Shown here: piece after piece, positions 1-47,231 of the stretch
Numbering within the stretch: the first letter of the stretch is position 1
How the letters are laid out: each line of letters begins with the position of its first letter
Assembly: GCA_040767965.1 (NCBI GenBank)
Contig: JAXGNR010000009.1
Location: forward strand, 37,955 to 101,954
From: Atribacterota bacterium
GTDB taxonomy: Bacteria > Atribacterota > Phoenicimicrobiia > Phoenicimicrobiales > Stramentimicrobiaceae
Reading direction: 5' to 3'
Length of the DNA stretch: 64,000 bases
Position numbers and translations under genes: made by a program
Notes under the pieces: model-generated
What the model was told of the DNA's origin: nothing
What the model saw: the letters and a program-made list of their open reading frames with translations, nothing else
Databases searched by the model: none

Positions 1-124
1 ATTTGATCTAATTGAATGAAGTGCAGTGCGATAAAATCTATATTAGAAATAGGAATTTGGGATATAACATTATATTAATATTTTCTATTGTTTTCTATTT
101 TTTTGAAAAAGTAAGAGGTATAAT

Positions 125-650
125 ATGAGCAAAGTTACCAAAATTAGAGCATATAAGCAATCTAGTTAATAATTTTGTTACTAATATTTGTGCAACATTA
201 ATGTTAGTATTATTCGGGATAATACTATATGGAGTTTTTTATCGATATTTTTTAAATTACCCTCTGTCTTGGGTCATACCAATCGCAAGAATGCTGGTGG
301 TTTGGATTGGTATTAGCTATTTCGATAGCATTTAAAGAAGGGAACACATTGCTATCAATTATGTTGTTAATGTTTTTCCAGTACCAATACAAAAAATAAT
401 ACACAGTTTGGGATATATTCTCATTATTACATATCTTGTTTTGCTTATCTGGAAAGGTTTTCCAATTGCTTTCCAATCTGCTGAAACTGTCATGATATCG
501 AGAAAATAAGAATCCCACTAATTTGGTCTATGATCGCTATACCAATTGGTGCACTGGTTAATTTTATACACCTGTTGCCTCTACCTTTATTAATTGAGGA
601 ACGTATTGAGCAGTCTAGGAATGAGCAGAAAAATATCGCTTTAGATTTAT
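125..650 (+). pseudogene. TRAP transporter small permease (DctQ-like) remnant, frameshifted
   Basis: ATG at 125; hydrophobic DctQ-like segments spread over more than one frame directly upstream of a DctM remnant. Confidence 0.4.
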
Positions 651-686
651 AAGTAACAAATAAAAATAAGGAGCGAAAAGAAGAAG

Positions 687-1979
687 ATGTTTTTTATAGC
701 ATTATTATTAATAGTATTCGCATTGCTTATGGCTTTAGCAGTTCCTATTGGTTACGTGATAGGAATTACAGCCTCCTTTGGTTTATTATATATAGGTGGA
801 ACGGATTTTTTAAGAATATTAGTTACTCGATATAACAGTGGGCTCACTGGCTTTGTATTAGTAGCAGTACCTATGTTTACTTTAGCAGCTCAATTCATGA
901 ATCGCTCTGGTGTTACAGTATTGCTAATTAATTTTGCTAAAGTGTTTTTGGACGTCTTCGCGGGGGATTGGCTGTTGTCATTACTGCTGTTTGTGTTGTT
1001 TTTGGAATATTAACTGGTTCAGCGATGTAACTGAGACGATTGCAGTTGGAAGTATTTTGATTCCTAACATGAAAAAAGAAGGATATCCGGGGAGCATTCG
1101 CTGCTGCAGTAACAGGAACAGCTTCTGTTTTAGGCCCAATCATTCCTCCAAGTACAGTAATGATAGTTTAGCTACGATGATACCCGAGACATCAGTAATA
1201 TCCTTATTTGCCGCAGGCTTTTTACCTGGATTTTTGATAGCGGGTCTTATAATGCTTATTGTTATTTTCATTAGTTATCGCAAAGGTTATCCCAGAGGAG
1301 AAAGAGTAGCTGTAAAAGAAATTTTTAAAAGTGCGCTAAAAGCTATTATCCCTCTTATGACAGGGATAATCATGTTACTTCCTATATTTTATTAGGAATA
1401 ACTGATGTTACTGAAGCTTCTGCCGCAGGTGCTTTTTATGCTTTGTTATTGGTTTATTTTATTATAAAACATTAAAAATAAAAGATATTTTTGAATCAGC
1501 AAAAAACGCATCTAAGTTCTTGGGTGTTATTTATTTATTACTAGCTACAGCTAGTGTATTGGGTTGGATTATTGCAAAGTGGTCTTAGTACTATGGTATC
1601 AGACACAATAACCGGGTATAGTGGGAATCCAATTATGATACTTATTGCACTAAATATTTTTTTATTAATAGTGGGAATGTTTGTGGACACACTCCCAGCA
1701 GTAATTATACTAGCTCCAATTCTTATACCACCCCTGATAAGGATAGGATTTCATCCATTGCATGTGAGTATGTTATTATTAATTAATTTAAATATTGGGA
1801 ATGCTACACCTCCGGTAGGGATGACCCTTATGACTGCATCAAAAATTGCAGGGGTTTCTTATGAAAGCACAATAAAGCAAGGTTTTCCATTTATACTTTG
1901 CTTGATAATAGCACTTTTAATATTGACTTATTTCCCAGTGATTATTCTATTTGTACCAACTTTACTTGGTTTAATATAA
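687..1979 (+). pseudogene. TRAP transporter large permease (DctM-like), at least two frameshifts
   Basis: Three consecutive ORFs (687-1013, 934-1395, 1554-1979) in different frames together read like one DctM polytopic permease. Confidence 0.7.
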
Positions 1980-2399
1980 TTTTTTTAATCAAGCGAGAAC
2001 TCCCACCTATAAGGGCAGAGGTGAGAGCATGTATCTTTACCTTTCATCCGTACTTTAATTAACAATAAGTAAAAACTTAAAAAAATTATTCTGAATTTGT
2101 TTTTTAATAATTGTTTTGTTGTATTCCATTAACAAAAAGTATTAATTAGTGCTTATTAGTCGAAAGTTCAAAAGATCCAAAAGATGATGGGAAATAATAG
2201 TCTTGCATATAATAGAGAGGAGGTTCATTACCTAAAAGAAATTACTGCGGTAAATGTTGTATTGTAATTGGATAATTGTGGTGAATAAAGATTAAGTAAT
2301 ATAAGTAATAGATGAATAATAGTGAAAAGACATTGTGGCCTCATTAGATACAAAATACGCGCATGTTTTCTGAAGGAGAAAACAATAATGATAGAAAAA

Positions 2400-3604
2400 A
2401 CTATTTCCTTATCAGTCCATCGTCTCCTGCTCTACTCTTGGACATGAATAAGATAGAGCGAAACATAAAAATGTCTCGGCTAGCAGCCGATGCGAATGTT
2501 AGATTAAGGCCACATGTTAAGATTCATGAAAGTGCAGAAATTGCCAAATGCAAATTGATGCAGGAGCGTGTGGTGTAGAAGTAGGTCCTGTGGCTCAAGC
2601 GAGTGTATGGTAAATAATGGGATTAAGGATATAAAAATTGCTCACCACAGTTATTATGGCGGACACAAGGGTGAATCACTCAAAAGAATTCTTTTGAATG
2701 GCGATGTAAAAGTCACTGTTGTAATAGATATGATTGAACAAGCTGAACAAATATCTTGTATTGGTAAAATGCTTGGTCGAGAAGTTTTCTGTAAATATAA
2801 AGATTGATACAAGTATAGTAGCAGGTGGCATTTCACGTCATGGTATCAGAACTTGATGAAGAAGCCTTAATCACCGCAGCTAGGAAGGCTTCTAGATTCC
2901 ATATTAAAGTAACAGGAATTTACGCCCATGAAATGGGTGCTGAAGCAACAGATAAGTCTTTTAGATTTCATGCTTATAAAACTCTCGAGATAATGTCAAA
3001 CTTGGCTATAAAATTTAAAAATGCCGGTATTGAATTAAATGATGTTTCTGTTGGTGCTTCCCTGAATATCGCTATACATGCAAATATCTAAGGAAAGGTA
3101 AATTCGGGAGGTAAATGAACTTCATCCAGGGGAATTTTGTGATTGGCAGTCTTGTATACTGACATCTTGGTGGTAATAAAATAGAAAATTGCGCTCTCGA
3201 AGTATGTTGGTTACAGTAATGAGTACCGCTCATCCAGACTGGGTAATGATTGATGCAGGTTATAAAGGCTTTTTCTCCTGATTATATTTTGGGAGCTGAA
3301 TGAGCGAGCTATTTCTGGGAATACAAAGGTACACCTTTACGCTTTGGTCTTAGGTAAAGAACGCACAGATTTACGGGCAGCAACATTGTGAGTGCTGAGG
3401 TACATATTTATTATATGGATCACTAAACCAAAACTAAATATTGGTGACCGCTTGGAAATTATTCCAAACAACAGCACTTGTGCTATAAATATGCATGATC
3501 CTCTATATATGGAAGTAAGAAATGGCTTTATAGAGAGAGTAATTCCTATTACCTGTGGGGTAAAGGTAACTAGTGTTACGTTCCTAAAAAATCTTTACAT
3601 TTGA
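2400..3604 (+). pseudogene. D-serine deaminase-like / alanine racemase-domain protein (DSD1 family), degraded copy 1
   Basis: Fragments PALLLDMNKIERNI, RLRPHVKIHE and C-terminal GDRLEIIPNNSTCAINMHD parallel the neighbouring copy; several frame changes. Confidence 0.5.
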
Positions 3605-3740
3605 AATATTTTATCTGATACTTTGAGCAAGGATTGATTTAAGAGGAATATTATTATTGGGTTTTGATTAAATGATTCAATGTTTAATATTATATTTATA
3701 TTATTAATAGTAAAACTTTAATATATAAAAGGAGTTTTTA

Positions 3741-4850
3741 ATGGATAGATATATAATTGGTTCTCGAGTTGAAGATATCGAAACACCTGCTCTATTACTT
3801 GAGCTTGATAAACTTGAATACAAGCATAATAAAATGGCAGACTTAATAAGAAAAAACAATAAATATATTAGACCACATTTTAAAACACATAAGAATCCTT
3901 TTAGCGCACAAACAACTTTCAGCGGGGCTATTGGAATTACCTGCCAGAAATTATCAGAAACAGAGGTGCTGGCAAAATCTGGAATAAAAGATATCCTTAT
4001 TACAAATGAAGTGGTGGGGAAGCAAAAATAAGAAGATTAGTAAATTTAGCTGCTTATACTGATATCAAAGTTGCGATTGATAATGAGCAAAATGCAGAAG
4101 ATATTTCTGAGATAGCTTTAGACAAAGGTGTTGTAGTAAATTATTTGGTTGAAGTTAATATAGGAATGAATCGTTGTGGGATAAGAATAGGGGAGCCAGT
4201 TGTAAATTTTATAAAAAAAATAAATAAATTACAAGGTTTAAAATTTTTAGGGATCTTCGCTTATGAAGGCCACGCTGTATTTATAGAGTCATTGGAAGAA
4301 AGGTATAAAGAAACCAATATAGCCCTTGAAAAAGTTAGTCATACCAAAGAATTACTTGAAAAGGAATCCATATTTTTTGTCAAATAATTAGTTGTGCAGG
4401 AACAGGTACTTATATGATTGCAGGGCAACACCCAGATGTTACAGAAATTGAGGCAGGCAGTTATCTAACAATGGATAGCAAATATGAAAATATAGAGGGG
4501 GTTGGGGAAACCTTTAAAACAGCTTTAAGTGTACTTACTACTATTATAAGCATTCCAAGTAATGATAGGATAATTATTGATGCTGGTTTAAAATCTATAA
4601 GTAAAGATTTTGGTATGCCGTTCTCAAAGAACAATAGAGAGATCTAAAATTGTATAAGCTTTCAGAAGAACATGGAATATTTAAGGTAAATAAAAGATAA
4701 TAATAAAAATTTTTCTTTAGGGCAAAAAATAGAATTAATTCCTAGTCATGGTTGTACAACGATAAACTTACATGATCTTTATTATGGAATTAGATCCGGC
4801 ATTGTGGAATGCATTTTGCCAATAGAAGGAAGAGGAAAAAGCTATTAGGT
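3741..4850 (+). pseudogene. D-serine deaminase-like / alanine racemase-domain protein (DSD1 family), degraded copy 2
   Basis: N-terminus PALLLELDKLEYKHNKM...RPHFKTHK, then continuation in two other frames (4145-4387, 4414-4647) and C-terminal GQKIELIPSHGCTTINLHD; breaks sit at homopolymer runs. Confidence 0.6.
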
Positions 4851-5222
4851 AATAATTTTAAAAGCAAGAAAGTTATAGGGTTATAACAGGATCTATTGTT
4901 GACAATTTAACAAAGGAACTAGGGAGTAAGACTTATAACTACCAGATTCTCCCTAGTCCATATTTATTCTCCCAAATTCAGCTATTCACCAATCCTCTGG
5001 AGGCATTTTAACGGTTTCTTCCCGAGCAAGGTATCTTTATTTATTGAATGACACAAGAGACCGTTGTTCATGCTAAGCAATTTTTTGTCTTTATGGGCCT
5101 TAGAAATAACCGTTATGTAGTTTAAGAAATTTTATGCTATAATAATAAAAAATATCAATTAAAACATTTCTTAATAATATTCCGTTATTCAGAACCTATA
5201 ATTTTAAAGGGAGGCAATATAA

Positions 5223-5810
5223 ATGATTGCTTATAAAACAGAAAAACTTAACAATGCCATTTGTTATTTTGCCAATGAAGTTTATAAGCGAAGGAAGGAA
5301 TATTTGCCCCAAACATTATTATATAAATTGCTTTCTTATTTGGATTTCACCAGTATTGAAAAATTAGGAGTCCCAGCTTTAGAGCTAAAATATCGTGCTC
5401 TTAAGAATGGCCCAGTACCTGAAGAGATATATCAAAACAAAGATGCATACGAAACTGATTGCTTTAAATTTGAGAAGAGAAGCAATAGAAGATTTATTAT
5501 TATCTCAAAGAGGGAAGCTGATTTAGATTATTTTTCAGATTTTGAAATCGAGATAATGAATGATTTATTAAACAGATATATCGGCAAAGAAAATACTATG
5601 AAAGAAATCATTGATAATATCTGTAATGATAGTCACAAAGATATCAAAGCCTGGAAAGTAGCATATGACCGGGGAAAAAATAGTGAAATGAATTATAGTG
5701 ATACATTTGAAGCAATTGACCAAAAAGATCTTGAAAATTTATCTATATCTATAAATGAAGAAAGGTTTTTAGTTTATCGCGGCTTAAAAGAAAAAACTAA
5801 ATGCAATTAG
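5223..5810 (+). CDS. Panacea (DUF4065)-like domain protein, putative antitoxin
   Basis: 195 aa; motif KLLSYLDF...GVPALELKYRALKNGPVPEEIY resembles the DUF4065/SocA-type signature; RBS-like GGGAGG upstream. Confidence 0.55.
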   Translation: MIAYKTEKLNNAICYFANEVYKRRKEYLPQTLLYKLLSYLDFTSIEKLGVPALELKYRALKNGPVPEEIYQNKDAYETDCFKFEKRSNRRFIIISKREADLDYFSDFEIEIMNDLLNRYIGKENTMKEIIDNICNDSHKDIKAWKVAYDRGKNSEMNYSDTFEAIDQKDLENLSISINEERFLVYRGLKEKTKCN

Positions 5811-6145
5811 GTTCAGTATTTATTTGGAAAAATTTCCCCCACGGTAAAGATGGTACCATTAAAGATAGATATTTTGTATATGTTGGAGAAAGCCATTTCC
5901 CCGTTAACCCTGTACATATATTTTTAATTACTACAACAACTAGAAAAATGTATTATGCAACAGGTGGTTCTAGAGAAAAGCATAATATTTACAAGTTTAA
6001 AGCTGGTTCTTTTGGTTTTGTGGAAGATTGTATTTTAGATATTGATTTTCTTCAATCTAATATAAAAAAAAGTGCTTTTGACTCCTGTCAAAATGAAATA
6101 AAAGAGGTTGGTAAACTTCCGGAGAAAGAATTGAAAGAAATATAA
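5801..6145 (+). CDS. Small protein with MazF/PemK-like signature, putative toxin partner
   Basis: 114 aa; ATG overlaps the upstream stop by 10 nt; GSVFIWKNFPHGKDGTIKDRYFVYVG and ITTTTRK align by eye with MazF/EndoA N-terminal strands. Confidence 0.4.
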   Translation: MQLGSVFIWKNFPHGKDGTIKDRYFVYVGESHFPVNPVHIFLITTTTRKMYYATGGSREKHNIYKFKAGSFGFVEDCILDIDFLQSNIKKSAFDSCQNEIKEVGKLPEKELKEI

Positions 6146-6847
6146 TATATAATTTAATATTAAAATCTAAATACATAAACTTAAAGGCTAAACAAGATAT
6201 TTATATTAGCTATAACCACGCAAATATAATAGGTCTAAAGAGACCAAAAAGAAAATAAATAAAAAAGAATAAGTAAATAATGGAATCAGATACTGTCTTG
6301 AAAATCAACTCAAAACTATTCTTTAAGGATACGAAGAAATGTCCCCTGTATCGATTCTTTTTAGCTAGATGATAGATATTTTACTCTCTTACCGGAAATG
6401 TTTTAATAACTTAATACTATCTTCTTTCTTAGAGCTAGTGCTGTATAAGATGATTATAGCTGGTAATTTGAGCAAATTAATTAAACATGGATATCTTCTT
6501 CTCTTTTTTGAAGATTTCTAGTATTGCTATTAATTGCTTGTTTAACATCTCCTTACCCTCCCTGCCATAGTAAAGAGCTTTGTTCTCTCAATATAGAGGG
6601 GAGAAATCCCCTATAATTAAAATAATTTAGAGTACTTTTGCGTTTGAGGTATCGATAAAACTTGGAATACTTTTTTGATGAGGCAATTCAATATTTTGAC
6701 ATATTATTTAAACCATAATAAAATTGTAGCCATAAATAACTACATAATTATAGATATATTTACAAAAAAGAATCAAAATTAAGAAAAACATGGATACAGA
6801 GAACCGTTTCCTGTATCCTTCCTCAAAAATGTGAAGGAGGATTAAAC

Positions 6848-7864
6848 ATGGATATGCTTAAAGATAGCAGATATAATTTGAAGCCGGAGTTTCCGCCGCA
6901 TCTGTCTCTTGGAGTAAGCAAGGAAAAATTCATGCTGAAAACATGTGCAATCATGTCCATTCCATTGATCCTGGGGGTACTTGCAATTGGATGGCAAGCG
7001 CTTTGGCAGATCCTTATATCTTCCGGAACGGTTTTGATCCTGCATACTTTAATACAGTTTTGGGAAAGTCAGACAGAACGCCGTGTTTCATATCCTACAC
7101 CTGCATCACCGTTGGTACTGGCCTTGATAGTAGGTTTGAGTATGCCGGCTTCATCGCCATATACTGTGACTGTCGGAGTGGCTGCACTGGCTATGGTGAT
7201 ATTTAAATATTTACAAGGAAGAATTTTTACGCGCAAATTTGTAAATCCTGCTGCTGCTGCAAAAGCGGTGTTGTTGACAATGCTTTCACTTATGATATTT
7301 TTTGAAAATCCCCTTCGGGTAGGCATGCTCTACCATCCCCATCACTTGAATCTGGATTTGTTGTCTTCAGCTGGATTTGCTAGTGCGATTTCATTCTATG
7401 AAACTGATACTTTGACGGCTGTGCAGAGCCTGATCTTTTGGAAAACCCACGGTTGGATTGGTGGCGCTTCCGGGCTGGGAACGCTTGTTGCGGGAATAAT
7501 AGCCTGTTTCTGGATTAGACTTAAATGACGCATTCCCTTAGCTTTTCTTTCAGTAATGACTGTACTTTCAACAGGAATGGGGCTTTTTACGGGAGGAGAT
7601 CCTCTATCGCGTATTGCCCTGCATGTCTTTACCGGAAGTACTATTTTTCTGGCGTTTTTTATGGCTACCGAGCCTCAATCTACACCAATGCCGGAAAAAA
7701 GTCAGTACCTATTTGGTATCTCTTTAGCTGTACTTACTTTTGTTTTACAGCTGGCAGGAGTACTGGGTGGGTCTATTATTGCCCTGGTAATTTTAAATTT
7801 ATTCACTCCCTGGTTAGATAAAATTGGTCATAAAAGAGCTATAGGTATGAAAGGAGGCAAGTAG
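6848..7864 (+). pseudogene. rnfD: RnfD/NqrB-family membrane subunit interrupted by in-frame TGA at 7526-7528
   Basis: ORFs 6848-7528 and 7556-7864 are in the same frame; C-terminal FFMATEPQSTP matches the RnfD FFMATDP motif; combined length about 330 aa. Confidence 0.6.
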
Positions 7865-7865
7865 T

Positions 7866-9152
7866 ATGCGCAGGTATTATGAAGAAAAACAAGGCTTCAG
7901 GATTGATGCTAAAATGAAGTTAGGCCTGGAACAAAATGCCTTCGAAGTAATTCCAACACCTCCGGCGATAATAGTTTTCCTGGATCAACATGTTGGATTT
8001 CCTGGAAAGCCGCTGGTAAAAGAAGGAGACCGAGTCTTAACGGGCCAAAAAATATCTGATGGCGAGAAAAAGCTCACATTACCTGTGCACAGTCCTATTA
8101 CCGGTAGGGTGACCGGATTTGTTGAACTACGCCATCCTATTTCAGGAAAATTGAAGCACGCTGTAGCTATCGAAGCAGAAGGAGAAGAAGAGTGGATTCT
8201 TATGAAGCAGTATCCAAACTTTAAATCTTTAAGTAACCAGGAGATAATCAAACGAGTGCGGGAAGCCGGAATAGTAGGACTGGGTGGGGCTGCTTTTCCA
8301 ACATATATGAAATTATCCAGAGGATCTGATGTGGATCATCTGATTATAAATGCTAAAGAAAGTGATCCCAACCTTGCCTGTGATATTCGGTTGGCTCTTG
8401 AACAACCTGAAGAATTGATTAATGGGATCGAGATTATGGCTCGCGCTCTGGAGGTAGAGAAAGTTACTTTTGCTACCAGAACTGAAGAAGGTGAACTCCT
8501 TCAATTTGAAAAGCTTTTAAAAGAGCGAGGAATAAAAATTGCTCATATCAGACCTTCGTATTCGATAGGTAGTGAACGTCTGCTGGTACGTGAATTGTTG
8601 GGCAGAGAGGTGCCAGTCGATCAATACCCTCCGGATGTTGGTGTTGTGGTGCATAATGTGGCCACCTGTTTTGCAACCAGTGAAGCTGTTATTAAAGGTA
8701 AACCTCTTATTTCCAGAGGTATAACTTTTTATTCCAGTAAAACCGGAGGAAGAAACTTATGGGTAAGAATGGGCACTCCAATTGAACATATTCTGAACTA
8801 CATGAATATTTCTTCTGAGAACATAGATCGGGTTATCCTGGGATCAATAATGATGGGCAAAGGCGCACCTGATTTAAAAACACCCATGCTTAAGTGTTTT
8901 GCTGGCGTGGTAGCATTAACTTCCGATGAACATAGTTTATATAAAAACCCATCTCCGTGTATACGCTGTGGTTATTGTGATTCGATTTGTCCTGTGAATA
9001 TTTATCCATCTTTGCTTCTGGAAGCATTGGAAAAAGGCAGGACTGAGATCCTTGATTCTCTTAATATTAACTCATGTATAGACTGCAATCTTTGTTCTTA
9101 TGTATGCCCTTCTTCAATCAGAGTCAACCCCAAACAAAGAATGATGGGATAA
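7866..9152 (+). CDS. rnfC: RnfC-like electron transport subunit with two 4Fe-4S ferredoxin motifs
   Basis: 428 aa; GIVGLGGAAFPTYMKL motif; CIRCGYCDSICP and CIDCNLCSYVCP cysteine clusters; starts 2 nt after the rnfD-like ORF. Confidence 0.75.
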   Translation: MRRYYEEKQGFRIDAKMKLGLEQNAFEVIPTPPAIIVFLDQHVGFPGKPLVKEGDRVLTGQKISDGEKKLTLPVHSPITGRVTGFVELRHPISGKLKHAVAIEAEGEEEWILMKQYPNFKSLSNQEIIKRVREAGIVGLGGAAFPTYMKLSRGSDVDHLIINAKESDPNLACDIRLALEQPEELINGIEIMARALEVEKVTFATRTEEGELLQFEKLLKERGIKIAHIRPSYSIGSERLLVRELLGREVPVDQYPPDVGVVVHNVATCFATSEAVIKGKPLISRGITFYSSKTGGRNLWVRMGTPIEHILNYMNISSENIDRVILGSIMMGKGAPDLKTPMLKCFAGVVALTSDEHSLYKNPSPCIRCGYCDSICPVNIYPSLLLEALEKGRTEILDSLNINSCIDCNLCSYVCPSSIRVNPKQRMMG

Positions 9153-9524
9153 CTAACCGATTCTCCTTTTATTAAATTCTTAGAAAAATTTTATTTTTAT
9201 AAATAATTGATTTTTTAAAATAAAGAGAGTATATTGAAAACAATAATATATAACTATTAAATCATTAGCAATAGTTTAAATAATTATTAAAATATAAAAC
9301 TTTATATAGCATCATAATGTCTGTAATTAAACTGTTAAATATAAAGATAAAGACATATCTAAGTTTATTTATAGTTTAACTACGATATAAAGAAGATAAC
9401 CATATGTTTCATTTATTAAGAAAACTACACTATTAGATTAGCAAGAAAAATAAGTTAATGTTATGAATTCCCAATTCAAATTTAGAGCATATTTTAAGAA
9501 ATAGGAGGGTTTGCCTATTTAAAA

Positions 9525-9630
9525 AAGCTCTAAGCCGAGAAAGGTAAACCATCGGTAACGATGGGACGCAAAGTCAAGGGTCCCGCCTCAACTAATCCCC
9601 TCAATGGGACTGCCAGACTATCTGCTTACT
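9525..9630 (+). ncRNA. c-di-GMP-I (GEMM)-like riboswitch aptamer
   Basis: GGUAAACC-AUCG-GUAA-CGAU-GGGACGCAAAG-UCAAGGGUCC closely matches the Vibrio Vc2 core GGCAAACC...GAAA...GGGACGCAAAGCC; P2-like stem GGUCCC/GGGACU; about 130 nt upstream of a surface lipoprotein gene. Confidence 0.65.
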
Positions 9631-9757
9631 GCACCATGTTTATTTATGATTCGAAAAGATAAATCATATTCAAACTAAACCCATTACAGCCATATTCTAT
9701 GATGAACAATTATTTAATAATATTAAAGCATGTTATATAAAAAAGGAGGCTATTTAA

Positions 9758-11965
9758 TGAAATTAAGTAAAAAACTGGTTTCTGTTAGCATGTTTTTATT
9801 GATTTTATTATTTCTGTCGAGCTGCGGAATTATACCGCAAACACCTGAAGGAAAGATTTCCGGCCGGGTACTGATTCCCCTATTTGAAATGTCTAAGGAT
9901 GTTAGCGGATGGATTCCCACAGCCAATGCCGTAGTCACTATTGTTGATGCTTCTGGAGTAACCCATACAACAACTACTGATGAGGAAGGTTATTATAATT
10001 TTGAAGATATTACAGTCAATCCAAATACAGTTATTACTGCATCAGTCACTGTAGATGAAAATATTGTCATACTTAAAAATGTAATACCCCATGCAGTCAC
10101 AGCAGGTGAAGACTATAATGCCGGTGAAATGACTCCTGAATCAACAGCATTGGCTCTGGTGGTAGAAGAACTCCTGGCAGAAGGCATGGATCCGGAAGAT
10201 ATTGACCATGAAGAGATAGAATCAAATGATAATTTTTCAGATTTAGTAGAAAAAATTACTGAAGTACTAGAAGAGGGAGGAGATGTAACTACAGATCCTG
10301 ATATTGTTGATATAATAAACGACATTATCAACCCACCTGTACCTCCCTTCGCCACCATCACCTTCTCCAACTACAAAATTACCGATCTATAACCAGACTC
10401 AGAAGACATATCATGATACTATCCAGAAGGCGATCGATGCATCCGGTAGTGGTGATATCATTATTGTCTCTAAAGGAACTATATAATGAAAACATTGTTA
10501 TTGATAACAAAAACATAACCCTGAAAGCTCCGACCCTGCAGATTCCGTTGTTGTGGCTGCCACCATCATAGACGGACAGGACTTGAATTCGGTGATAAAG
10601 ATCCTAAACGGAGACAAATCAAACCTGGAGGGATTTACCATCCAGAATGGAAATGAACCTGATTATGGAGGTGGGGGTATCTTTATCCGGCAGTTCTCCT
10701 GTGATCAGATACAACATTATTGGGGATAATATTGATGATGATATTGACACAGGGAATTTTGGAGATTGTGGTGGTGGAATTGGTGTTGTTGAATATAGTG
10801 AAACACCACATATTTATGAAAACATTATTATTGGCAACTCAGCAGACTATGGCGGCGGAATGTATATAGATTATGGTTCTCCTCTTGTTGAAAATAATAC
10901 GATTAAAGAAAATACCAGTAAGTACGACGGCGGAGGAATTACAGTGTTTTTCAGCAAGGAAGAGGAATATTGCCCAACCATCAGGGATAATACTATTGAA
11001 TATAATGTGGCAGATAATGGTGGTGGAATTGCTGTGGATGATTTAGGGATGCTATAATTGAAAATAACGGAATCAACAACAACGAAGCAATTTTTGGTGG
11101 AGGGATTTATGTTTATTACAAAGCTGATGCAGATATAAAAGGAAATAATATTATTGAAAACAATAAGGCAGGATATGATGGTGGAGGTATTTATATTGAT
11201 TCAGATGGCATCATCACTATTACCTCAAATACTATCAATAACAATGTAGCAAATATTGCTTCAGGTTCTTACTCCGGTGGAGGAATTTATGTGAATGAAA
11301 CATTCATGGCGACAACTCCCACAATTGGGGGTACGACGGGAATTGATACTGATAATTTTAACATTATCTGTGGTAACAGCCCTGACCAGGTGGATCCTGA
11401 TGATTATCCTAATAATTATTATTATACAATTGGCGATACAGGACCTGCTGGTGGGATCATCTTCTATATTGATGAAGCGAGACAGTTTGATTGGACTTAT
11501 CTTGAATGTGCACCCTATGGCTGGTATGATGGAGGAGAGGATCCAATACTGGCTTGGGGACCATGGGATGGAACCTCGGGATCACCTGGAGATGGTGTAG
11601 GAACAGGGATTTATGATTATGAATCGGATCTTGGGCTGGGGGAGGCAAATACCACCCTCATTCTTGCTGAAACTGGAACATTCCCAGCTGCTGAAGCAGC
11701 AGCTGCATATACAGGTGGTAGCCAAACAGACTGGTTTCTGCCCTCGAAATCTGAATTGAGTCTGATGTATTCCAATCTGTATCTGGCAGGATTGGGAGGA
11801 TTTTCTGATGATTCCACTAATCCACAAGATTTCTATTGGTCTTCTGCAGAAACTTCTCCTAACTCGGAATGGAAATTAGCTTGGACTAATTGTTTTGCAA
11901 GTGCAGGGCTTGGAGGATTCGATAAGACTTTGTCTTTTCGTGTTAGACCAATCCGAGCTTTTTAG
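9758..11965 (+). pseudogene. Large surface lipoprotein (beta-helix repeats, DUF1566-like C-terminus), multiply frameshifted
   Basis: Lipoprotein signal MKLSKKLVSVSMFLLILLFLSSCG; repeated GGGI beta-helix-type motifs; C-terminal DWFLPSKSELSLMY resembles DUF1566; reading frame changes at least three times. Confidence 0.6.
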
Positions 11966-46087: not shown

Positions 46088-46308
46088 ATATTGACAAACA
46101 TAAAGAAATGGTAAATACTTTTAATAGTCTGCCTGAAAAAAAATATTATTACAGAATACCACAACTCCGAATTATCTAACCTAATGATAAAATACTATTT
46201 TTTTCTATGGTTAGATAATCAGTTATTATTTGTAAAATAACCAAGGGCAATTAAGGAAACTTAATTGCCTCCCATAATTGGAAAGGAGGGATACTTTGCA
46301 TGAAGTTC

Positions 46309-46385: not shown

Positions 46386-47231
46386 ATGGAATTTGTAACA
46401 TTAAATAACGATATAAAAATGCCCATGTTAGGGTATGGTGTATTTCAGATTGCAGATGAAAAAATATGCGAACAATGCGTATCTGATGCCATTAAGGCCG
46501 GCTATCGTTCCATTGATACAGCAGCAGCTTATTTAAACGAAGAAGCAGTAGGAAGAGGTATTGAAAAAAGTGGAATACCCAGAGAAGAACTCTTTATAAC
46601 AACTAAAGTCTGGGTACAGGATGCCGGTTATGAAAATGCTAAAAAAGCTTTTGAAAAATCCATGCAAAAATTGCAGCTGGATTACCTTGACCTATATTTA
46701 GTTCACTGGCCTTTTAGTGATTATTATGGTTCCTGGAGGGCAATGGAGGAACTTTATAAAGAAGGAAGAATCAGGGCAATTGGTGTTTCTAATTTTTCCA
46801 GAGATCGCCTGTTTGATTTAATATTAAATAGCGAGATAGTGCCAGCAGTTAACCAGGTTGAAGTACATCCGTTTAATCAGCAGATAGAACAAAAGAAGAT
46901 CATGGATGACTTAAAAGTACAGATGGAATCCTGGGGGCCACTGGCACAGGGTAAAAACAATATTTTTAAAGATGAAATATTGTCTGCCATTGGAAAGAAG
47001 TACAGCAAAACTGTGGCTCAGGTAATCCTGCGCTGGCATATTCAACGTGGAGTTGTTGCTATTCCCAAATCTGCTACCAAAGAAAGAATTATAGAAAATT
47101 ATAATATATGGGACTTTCAATTAAGCCAGGAAGATATGGATGCTATTAAATCTTTTGATACAGGCAAACCTTTCCTGGACGGCACCAGCTTAGAGACTGT
47201 TAAAAGATTAAACAGCAGTAAGATCCATTAA
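46386..47231 (+). CDS. Aldo/keto reductase
   Basis: 281 aa; IDTAAAY and LVHWP motifs. Confidence 0.9.
   Translation: MEFVTLNNDIKMPMLGYGVFQIADEKICEQCVSDAIKAGYRSIDTAAAYLNEEAVGRGIEKSGIPREELFITTKVWVQDAGYENAKKAFEKSMQKLQLDYLDLYLVHWPFSDYYGSWRAMEELYKEGRIRAIGVSNFSRDRLFDLILNSEIVPAVNQVEVHPFNQQIEQKKIMDDLKVQMESWGPLAQGKNNIFKDEILSAIGKKYSKTVAQVILRWHIQRGVVAIPKSATKERIIENYNIWDFQLSQEDMDAIKSFDTGKPFLDGTSLETVKRLNSSKIH

Follow-up and report, generated by a model that had tools for sequence, protein, structure and literature searches.

A probable receptor-less GEMM-I (class I c-di-GMP) riboswitch aptamer in the 5′ leader of a frameshifted surface-lipoprotein gene, most likely from Atribacterota

The class I c-di-GMP riboswitches (RF01051, GEMM-I), with Vc2 of Vibrio cholerae as the prototype, contact their ligand through a few junction nucleotides whose roles have been described, i.e., G20, the Hoogsteen partner of one ligand guanine, C92, the Watson-Crick partner of the other, and A47 (PMC5888326). 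The linker of GEMM RNAs is "virtually always AAA", and terminators overlapping P2 were reported for 78 of 322 GEMMs (PMC1950547). Vc2 with a GUAA loop still binds, at 2.2 nM (PMC5888326). In Bacillus thuringiensis, Bc2 is located upstream of cap, which encodes a collagen adhesion protein, and is a class I ON switch in front of an adhesin gene (PMC4933901).

A 64-kb stretch of DNA, referred to as the window, was scanned in full with cmscan against Rfam 15 at gathering thresholds. A match to RF01051 was observed at nt 9533–9625 of the plus strand, with a score of 48.7 bits (gathering threshold, 35), an E-value of 1.8e-6 for the whole window versus 4227 families, and coverage of model positions 1–87 of 87; score, E-value and full model length together place the match far beyond chance. 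A c-di-GMP-I riboswitch had been proposed here in an earlier note made from the letters alone, which named Infernal against RF01051 as the check, and the outcome, above the curated threshold, agrees with that identity. The GEMM core sequence quoted in the note was found in its place, including the P1b hairpin CCAUCG-GUAA-CGAUGG (nt 9549–9564), the GGGACGCAAAG junction (nt 9563–9573) and the P2 stem (nt 9572–9585 with 9605–9619). Its description of a GC-rich island in AT-rich surroundings was reproduced as well (G+C of 0.54 in the aptamer versus 0.31 in the surrounding kilobase), and the distance to the gene start, given as about 130 nt, was measured as 131 nt from the aptamer end to the ATG at nt 9757 on the same strand, a cis position in the 5′ leader of a surface-protein gene. 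A permissive Rfam scan of nt 9100–9800 added just the sister model RF03167 (c-di-GMP-I-GGC), which at 45.8 bits was below its gathering threshold of 59. From the sequence, nt 9533–9625 very probably form a structurally intact class I c-di-GMP aptamer that belongs to the receptor-less kind of GEMM-I and is located in the 5′ leader of a surface-lipoprotein gene; the class is a known one, this representative of it is ordinary, and the host phylum is little studied.

A single c-di-GMP-I copy was detected in the 64 kb with Rfam and with our own covariance model built from Atribacterota aptamers; the latter returned no further GEMM copies in the window, and tblastn returned no paralogues of the lipoprotein gene there. 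Two riboswitches in all were found in the window at gathering thresholds, the other being a Moco riboswitch (RF01055; nt 46153–46304, plus strand; 80.9 bits versus a gathering threshold of 36). The ORF behind it (nt 46386–47231) encoded an aldo/keto reductase (PF00248), an atypical Moco-regulated gene.

All elements of the fold were assigned on the plus strand, and the ligand-contact positions were mapped via the consensus structure of RF03167, in which the junctions are marked explicitly. P1, taken from the cmscan alignment read against the sequence, pairs nt 9532–9537 with 9622–9627 and has one C-U mismatch that is common to the whole leader family; two more G-C pairs (nt 9527–9528 with 9631–9632) extend it, the aptamer with extended P1 covering nt 9527–9632. 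The G20 equivalent, aligned to the consensus G preceding P1a, is G9543, and is followed by P1a (nt 9544–9545 with 9568–9569) and by P1b (nt 9549–9554 with 9559–9564), which is capped by GUAA (nt 9555–9558). The AAA linker lies at nt 9570–9572 and begins with the A47 equivalent, A9570. P2 carries one uncompensated A-A mismatch (nt 9577 with 9615) and is closed by a pyrimidine-rich loop of 19 nt (nt 9586–9604). The J3/1 strand consists of A9620 and U9621, where the consensus is G-C, U9621 being the equivalent of position 92. Thus the conserved junction GACGC and the AAA linker, including the invariant, intercalating A47, are present, and the pocket reads G20/A47/U92, with U where the consensus has C.

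The first hairpin possesses a GNRA-type tetraloop (GUAA) and P2 lacks a tetraloop receptor, for want of which the binding affinity of the window aptamer may be low; in this class, a P2 receptor is to be expected only where the loop is of the GAAA type. As to the pocket, C92 is reported to be less conserved than A47 among natural class I members (PMC9049102), and in Vc2 the C92U change markedly, not completely, lowers the c-di-GMP response (bioRxiv 10.1101/617340). A U can form a wobble pair with G, and U92 is variation within the family, not a ground for exclusion. The simplest reading of U92 would be a c-di-GMP sensor of lower affinity.

A search with the downstream protein returned Atribacterota MAG and metagenome contigs only; since the nearest homologues are all from this phylum, the window most likely derives from Atribacterota too. 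In six further lineages, a homologous leader is located ahead of the homologous gene, an arrangement of aptamer and gene that is conserved. These loci, designated by L numbers, included L012/13 (L012, nt 451–544; L013, nt 1062–1155), with an aptamer of 48.8 bits against RF01051 before an intact 671-aa gene, L016–21 (46.6 bits), L026, before a gene for a CLIPPER_2 protein (53.4 bits), L029, found with our own covariance model, and L009–11, which had a GUGU loop and was below the Rfam threshold. In L001/L006–8 (L001, nt 1546–1638), the core GGGACGCAAAG was mutated to AGGUCAAAAAG and the aptamer scored 22 bits, with no match at the gathering threshold. Upstream in L001, a fragment of an integrase-core (rve-like) ORF was identified by eye. 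The P1b loop was GUAA, GAAA, UAAA, GUGU, GAGA or GAUU across the Atribacterota leader family; GNRA was not kept, and because the loop varies beyond GNRA the docking contact seems dispensable in these leaders.

Covariation was counted for the GEMM-I structure on 9 Atribacterota aptamers. Paired bases occupied 88.5% of the cells and both sides were changed in 13 of 29 pairs; none of 500 shuffles matched the observed covariation, and pairing dropped to 28–52% in the control in which partners were slid. The three-helix junction fold is supported by this covariation. Canonical, receptor-bearing GEMM-I aptamers (65 to 71 bits) were also observed before PAS/HD-GYP genes on Atribacterota contigs, and riboswitches of this class are clearly in use in the phylum. 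More Atribacterota GEMM-I aptamers were located in L022 (nt 6974–7068), L025 (nt 3614–3696), L026 (nt 859–951 and 3223–3323) and L028 (nt 420–527), and the genes behind them encoded PAS/HD-GYP proteins, a CLIPPER_2 surface protein, a stand-alone lipoprotein of the N-terminal-module type (see below) and a hypothetical protein. Taken together, these aptamers suggest that Atribacterota have a regulon under c-di-GMP riboswitches.

Upstream of the aptamer, a consensus scan revealed a sigma-70-like box, TTGATT-17 nt-TATATT, at nt 9207–9235 (plus strand). The box and its flanks were near-identical in the window, L001, L012, L009 and L029, in each case about 290 to 320 nt upstream of the aptamer, and the A+T-rich DNA around it diverged among the five leaders. 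Conservation of the box at this distance suggests a long, partly conserved 5′ UTR; nt 9207–9235 may act as promoter for the leader, in which case the predicted 5′ UTR would be about 515 nt long. A Shine-Dalgarno sequence, AAGGAGG, was read at nt 9744–9750 (plus strand), 6 nt before the ATG at nt 9757.

No intrinsic terminator was found by the terminator scan after the aptamer on the plus strand, and folds of the window and five homologous leaders gave no shared convincing helix, including any that would sequester the ribosome-binding site, but weak A/U hairpins only. One of these, UAUGAUU-loop-AAUCAUA at nt 9645–9668 (plus strand), appeared in minimum-free-energy folds and had no U-tract after it; it is possibly, with some uncertainty, part of the expression platform. 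Inspection of L001 by eye showed a hairpin at the homologous place, AACCAUU/AAUGGUU, in which three pairs are compensating and after which a U-rich run comes; a homologous hairpin was not consistent among the other leaders. The pyrimidine-rich P2 loop was considered both as an anti-Shine-Dalgarno element and as a partner of a conserved upstream GGAGG box, and both roles were rejected as unsupported, because in most of the 7 leaders shuffled loops gave duplex energies that were just as good. The purine-rich GGAGG box itself (nt 9502–9520 in the window), about 15 to 30 nt upstream of P1, was kept in 7 of 7 leaders; some of them present it within a small hairpin (AAUAGG...CCUAUU), as part of the loop, and its spacing to a start codon is not credible. 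A leader peptide after the upstream AGGAGG was likewise rejected, as the spacing was too short and the ORF had 3 codons in the window versus 56 in L012.

The gene behind the leader, delimited by three-frame translation, homologue alignments and Pfam, extends over nt 9757–11965 (plus strand) in decayed form. Its start codon is the ATG at nt 9757–9759, not nt 9758 as given in the earlier note. The ORF list and translation showed an intact N-terminal ORF of 211 codons (nt 9757–10392, plus strand) that ends at a frameshift-induced stop and encodes a lipoprotein signal peptide with the lipobox LSSC, a CarboxypepD_reg-like domain (PF13620), an acidic helical segment and a proline-rich linker; an identical 211-aa product is registered at NCBI from a contig of 125,516 nt. 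The note had described the product as a beta-helix/DUF1566 lipoprotein, of which the beta-helix proved solid. The right-handed beta-helix (PF13229) was recognized in the window fragment with 27.9 bits, above the cutoff of 25.9, and in intact homologues with 52 to 57 bits. The DUF1566 part (now Lcl_C, PF07603) was weak, with 22.4 bits in the window fragment and 20.4 bits in the intact L001 orthologue against a cutoff of 34.9, and for this tail no more than a weak resemblance can be claimed. Intact homologues were 775 aa (L001), 671 aa (L012) and 658 aa (L009) in length.

Alignment to the intact 775-aa L001 orthologue and four intact or nearly intact homologues located five frame-breaking indels, in agreement with the earlier description of a gene frameshifted several times. 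These are a +1 change at about nt 10345, the exact site of which is not placeable in the length-variable proline-rich linker, +1 at about nt 10480, -1 at about nt 10523, -2 (TG) at about nt 10684, and a net -1 at nt 11042–11050. With the exception of that at about nt 10345, the window was clearly the odd one out versus the four homologues at these sites (4 of 5). Three of the five indels, i.e., the +1 in CTATATAA, the -2 (TG) and the -1 in GGATGTGC, lie outside homopolymers. The correctly framed segments contained zero in-frame nonsense codons, and pairwise dN/dS versus intact copies was 0.1 to 0.4, a range also obtained when the intact copies were compared with one another; these values together with the lack of nonsense codons indicate that the disruption is recent, or not real. 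The gene was mosaic, with segment S1 closest to L012 and segment S5 closest to L016. Programmed frameshifting was rejected as an explanation, the five shifts being of mixed sign and in unrelated sequences. The homologous gene of L016, and likewise that of L017–L021, is divided into two ORFs, one of 222 aa and one of about 220 aa, by an extra A in the A-run CAGAAAAAATTA (L016, nt 4640–4665). This +1 frameshift was identical in at least six independent samples, and is accordingly real and population-wide, or possibly a slippage site.

Further broken genes were observed upstream of the leader. Within nt 1–5000 of the window, a TRAP transporter gene for DctM was present as three fragments (nt 687–1979), followed by Ala_racemase_N / D-ser_dehydrat fragments (nt 2363–4647), and an RnfD/NqrB-family gene (nt 6848–7864, plus strand) was interrupted by a single in-frame TGA at nt 7526–7528. 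The adjoining RnfC-like gene (nt 7866–9152) was intact. Coverage by long ORFs was 0.12 to 0.38 in nt 1–8000 versus 0.6 to 0.98 across the remaining window, and the G+C content of nt 7000–9000 was 42% versus about 32% elsewhere. A SocA/Panacea-domain antitoxin-like gene (nt 5223–5810, plus strand) overlaps a 114-aa ORF (nt 5801–6145) with no Pfam match, and the pair at nt 5223–6145 may be an intact toxin-antitoxin system inside the decayed region. Since the broken genes are clustered within 12 kb, this part of the window looks like a decaying region.

That the RF01051 match arose by chance, or that the signal belongs to a terminator on the other strand, can practically be dismissed. The terminator scan did flag the P1b hairpin on the minus strand (nt 9564–9549), but the E-value of 1.8e-6 was obtained over the full model, the fold covaries in related loci, always on the strand of the gene, and no minus-strand gene ends near nt 9549–9564; the RF01051 score and the covariation refute both possibilities. 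Rather improbable is an account in which the riboswitch is ordinary and the gene intact in the organism, the five frameshifts being assembly or consensus errors, for example from unpolished long reads or from collapsed strains or paralogues. Five indels against zero in-frame nonsense substitutions, an excess of indels that is unusual for natural decay, a dN/dS as low as that of intact copies, and the mosaic structure, typical of regions where consensus calling tends to fail, would fit such errors. However, the positions of three indels outside homopolymers do not, the other 52 kb of the window carries long intact ORFs and so shows an error rate that is not generally high, the same 12 kb holds more broken genes (DctM in three pieces, the racemase-like fragments, and RnfD with one TGA), and a related lineage has a frameshift, taken to be real, in the same gene in at least 6 independent samples. 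The lipoprotein gene is, in our judgement, likely a real pseudogene.

It had further been suggested that the control element may have survived the gene that it regulated. This is no more than plausible, because the 211-codon ORF is intact, dN/dS gives no sign of a long neutral phase, and assembly error is possible in a mosaic gene family of several copies. Stand-alone lipoproteins of 200 to 240 aa homologous to the N-terminal module occur in other Atribacterota loci, where the next gene is in each case a distinct one that has a ribosome-binding site and a signal peptide of its own; with such genuine homologues, the 211-aa stub could still be worth regulating. An aptamer that is a functionless relic, drifting since the gene died and regulating nothing, is an unlikely alternative in view of these real genes elsewhere. 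The window aptamer has practically the score of the L012/13 aptamer, which precedes an intact gene (48.7 versus 48.8 bits), and no damage is seen in any of its junction nucleotides, in the promoter-like box, in the Shine-Dalgarno sequence or in the first 211 codons; against this stand the broken target gene, the non-compensated A-A mismatch in P2, and the reverse case of L001/L006, in which the aptamer core has decayed (22 bits) and the gene is intact. Taken together, the intact switch before a broken gene in the window and the reverse in L001/L006 indicate that in this family a switch can decay without its gene, and a gene without its switch.

A last alternative concerns the ligand. U92 was found in the window, in L012/13 and in L009–11, and the U92 aptamers are set apart from one another by compensatory changes at other positions and, by P1b sequence, cluster with different C92 relatives, which argues that U92 is recurrent or maintained and not a lone lesion. 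The L012/13 aptamer has A at position 20 in addition to U at 92, and is a natural counterpart of the engineered Vc2 G20A/C92U, which binds c-di-AMP (PDB 3MUV, as summarized in PMC7288161); natural cGAMP switches rest on the G20A change (PMC7266159). By these sequence features, the window aptamer might be a specificity or affinity variant that senses 3′3′-cGAMP, c-di-AMP, or only very high c-di-GMP, which we hold to be very doubtful. C92 is, as noted above (PMC9049102), reported to be less conserved than A47 in natural class I members, Vc2 C92U retains c-di-GMP binding via a G-U wobble (bioRxiv 10.1101/617340), the surface-protein context beside canonical G/A/C leaders (L016, L026 and L029) is typical of c-di-GMP control, and the RF01051 score is above its threshold. 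Equally speculative is a natural series of pockets, from G/A/C (L016, L026, L029) through G/A/U (window, L009–11) to A/A/U (L012/13), along which the ligand would have been retuned. If true, the window would contain, in its U92 aptamer, a natural sensor that prefers cGAMP or has relaxed specificity, and the leaders of paralogous surface-protein genes within a single phylum would show how the specificity of a riboswitch evolves. For ligand-specificity assays, cheap candidates are available in the U92 aptamers and in the L012/13 aptamer with A20/U92.

For the favoured reading, an intact c-di-GMP aptamer, solved structures of the family suggest how control might proceed. The ligand would bind in the three-helix junction, where one of its guanines would contact G9543 (G20), A9570 (A47) would stack between both bases, and the other guanine would pair with U9621 (position 92) by a wobble instead of the usual G-C pair; binding would lock P1 (nt 9532–9537 with 9622–9627). 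The output, which is the weakest step of the scheme, would be exerted on translation initiation, mRNA stability or Rho-dependent termination. Classical attenuation is less likely, as there is no intrinsic terminator and a 131-nt A/U-rich spacer leads to the ribosome-binding site. By analogy with adhesin-linked class I switches, one may guess that high c-di-GMP turns the lipoprotein gene on, a direction to which we give only slightly more credence than to its opposite. In this genome, the switch would now govern at most the 211-aa lipoprotein stub. No convincing GGDEF, EAL or HD-GYP motifs, of diguanylate cyclases or phosphodiesterases, were found in the 64-kb window.

These findings tie c-di-GMP signalling to cell-surface lipoproteins in Atribacterota, an almost uncultured phylum; in the literature searched, no paper naming both Atribacterota and riboswitches was found. 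The annotation of the riboswitch is in itself routine and would be made by standard Rfam pipelines, and the modest interest of the locus lies in its phylum, in the natural variation of the pocket and in a switch and a gene whose decay is uncoupled.

Among known systems, the window aptamer shares with Vc2 the three-helix junction, the GACGCAAAG core with its AAA linker, G20, A47 and the location in a 5′ leader, but differs in having U92 instead of C, a 19-nt pyrimidine-rich P2 loop and an Atribacterota-like host. Vc2 possesses a GAAA loop together with a receptor, whereas the window has no tetraloop receptor; in this respect, it resembles the receptor-less GEMM subtype (GYRA) of Weinberg et al. 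2007 (PMC1950547), likewise having a GUAA loop and lacking the 11-nt receptor in P2, although the Atribacterota leaders do not even keep the GNRA loop. Bc2, upstream of cap in B. thuringiensis, is also of class I and also in the leader of a gene for a surface or adhesion protein (PMC4933901), but the window represents a different phylum and an unrelated protein, a beta-helix lipoprotein, and no platform of the terminator type was found in it. The window aptamer is not a member of RF03167 (c-di-GMP-I-GGC), having A rather than G at position 47 and a score of 45.8 bits, below 59, nor of the cGAMP-sensing GEMM-Ib, having G rather than A at position 20. With these two groups, both of which are examples of retuning by junction nucleotides, it nevertheless has the scaffold and the clan CL00126 in common.
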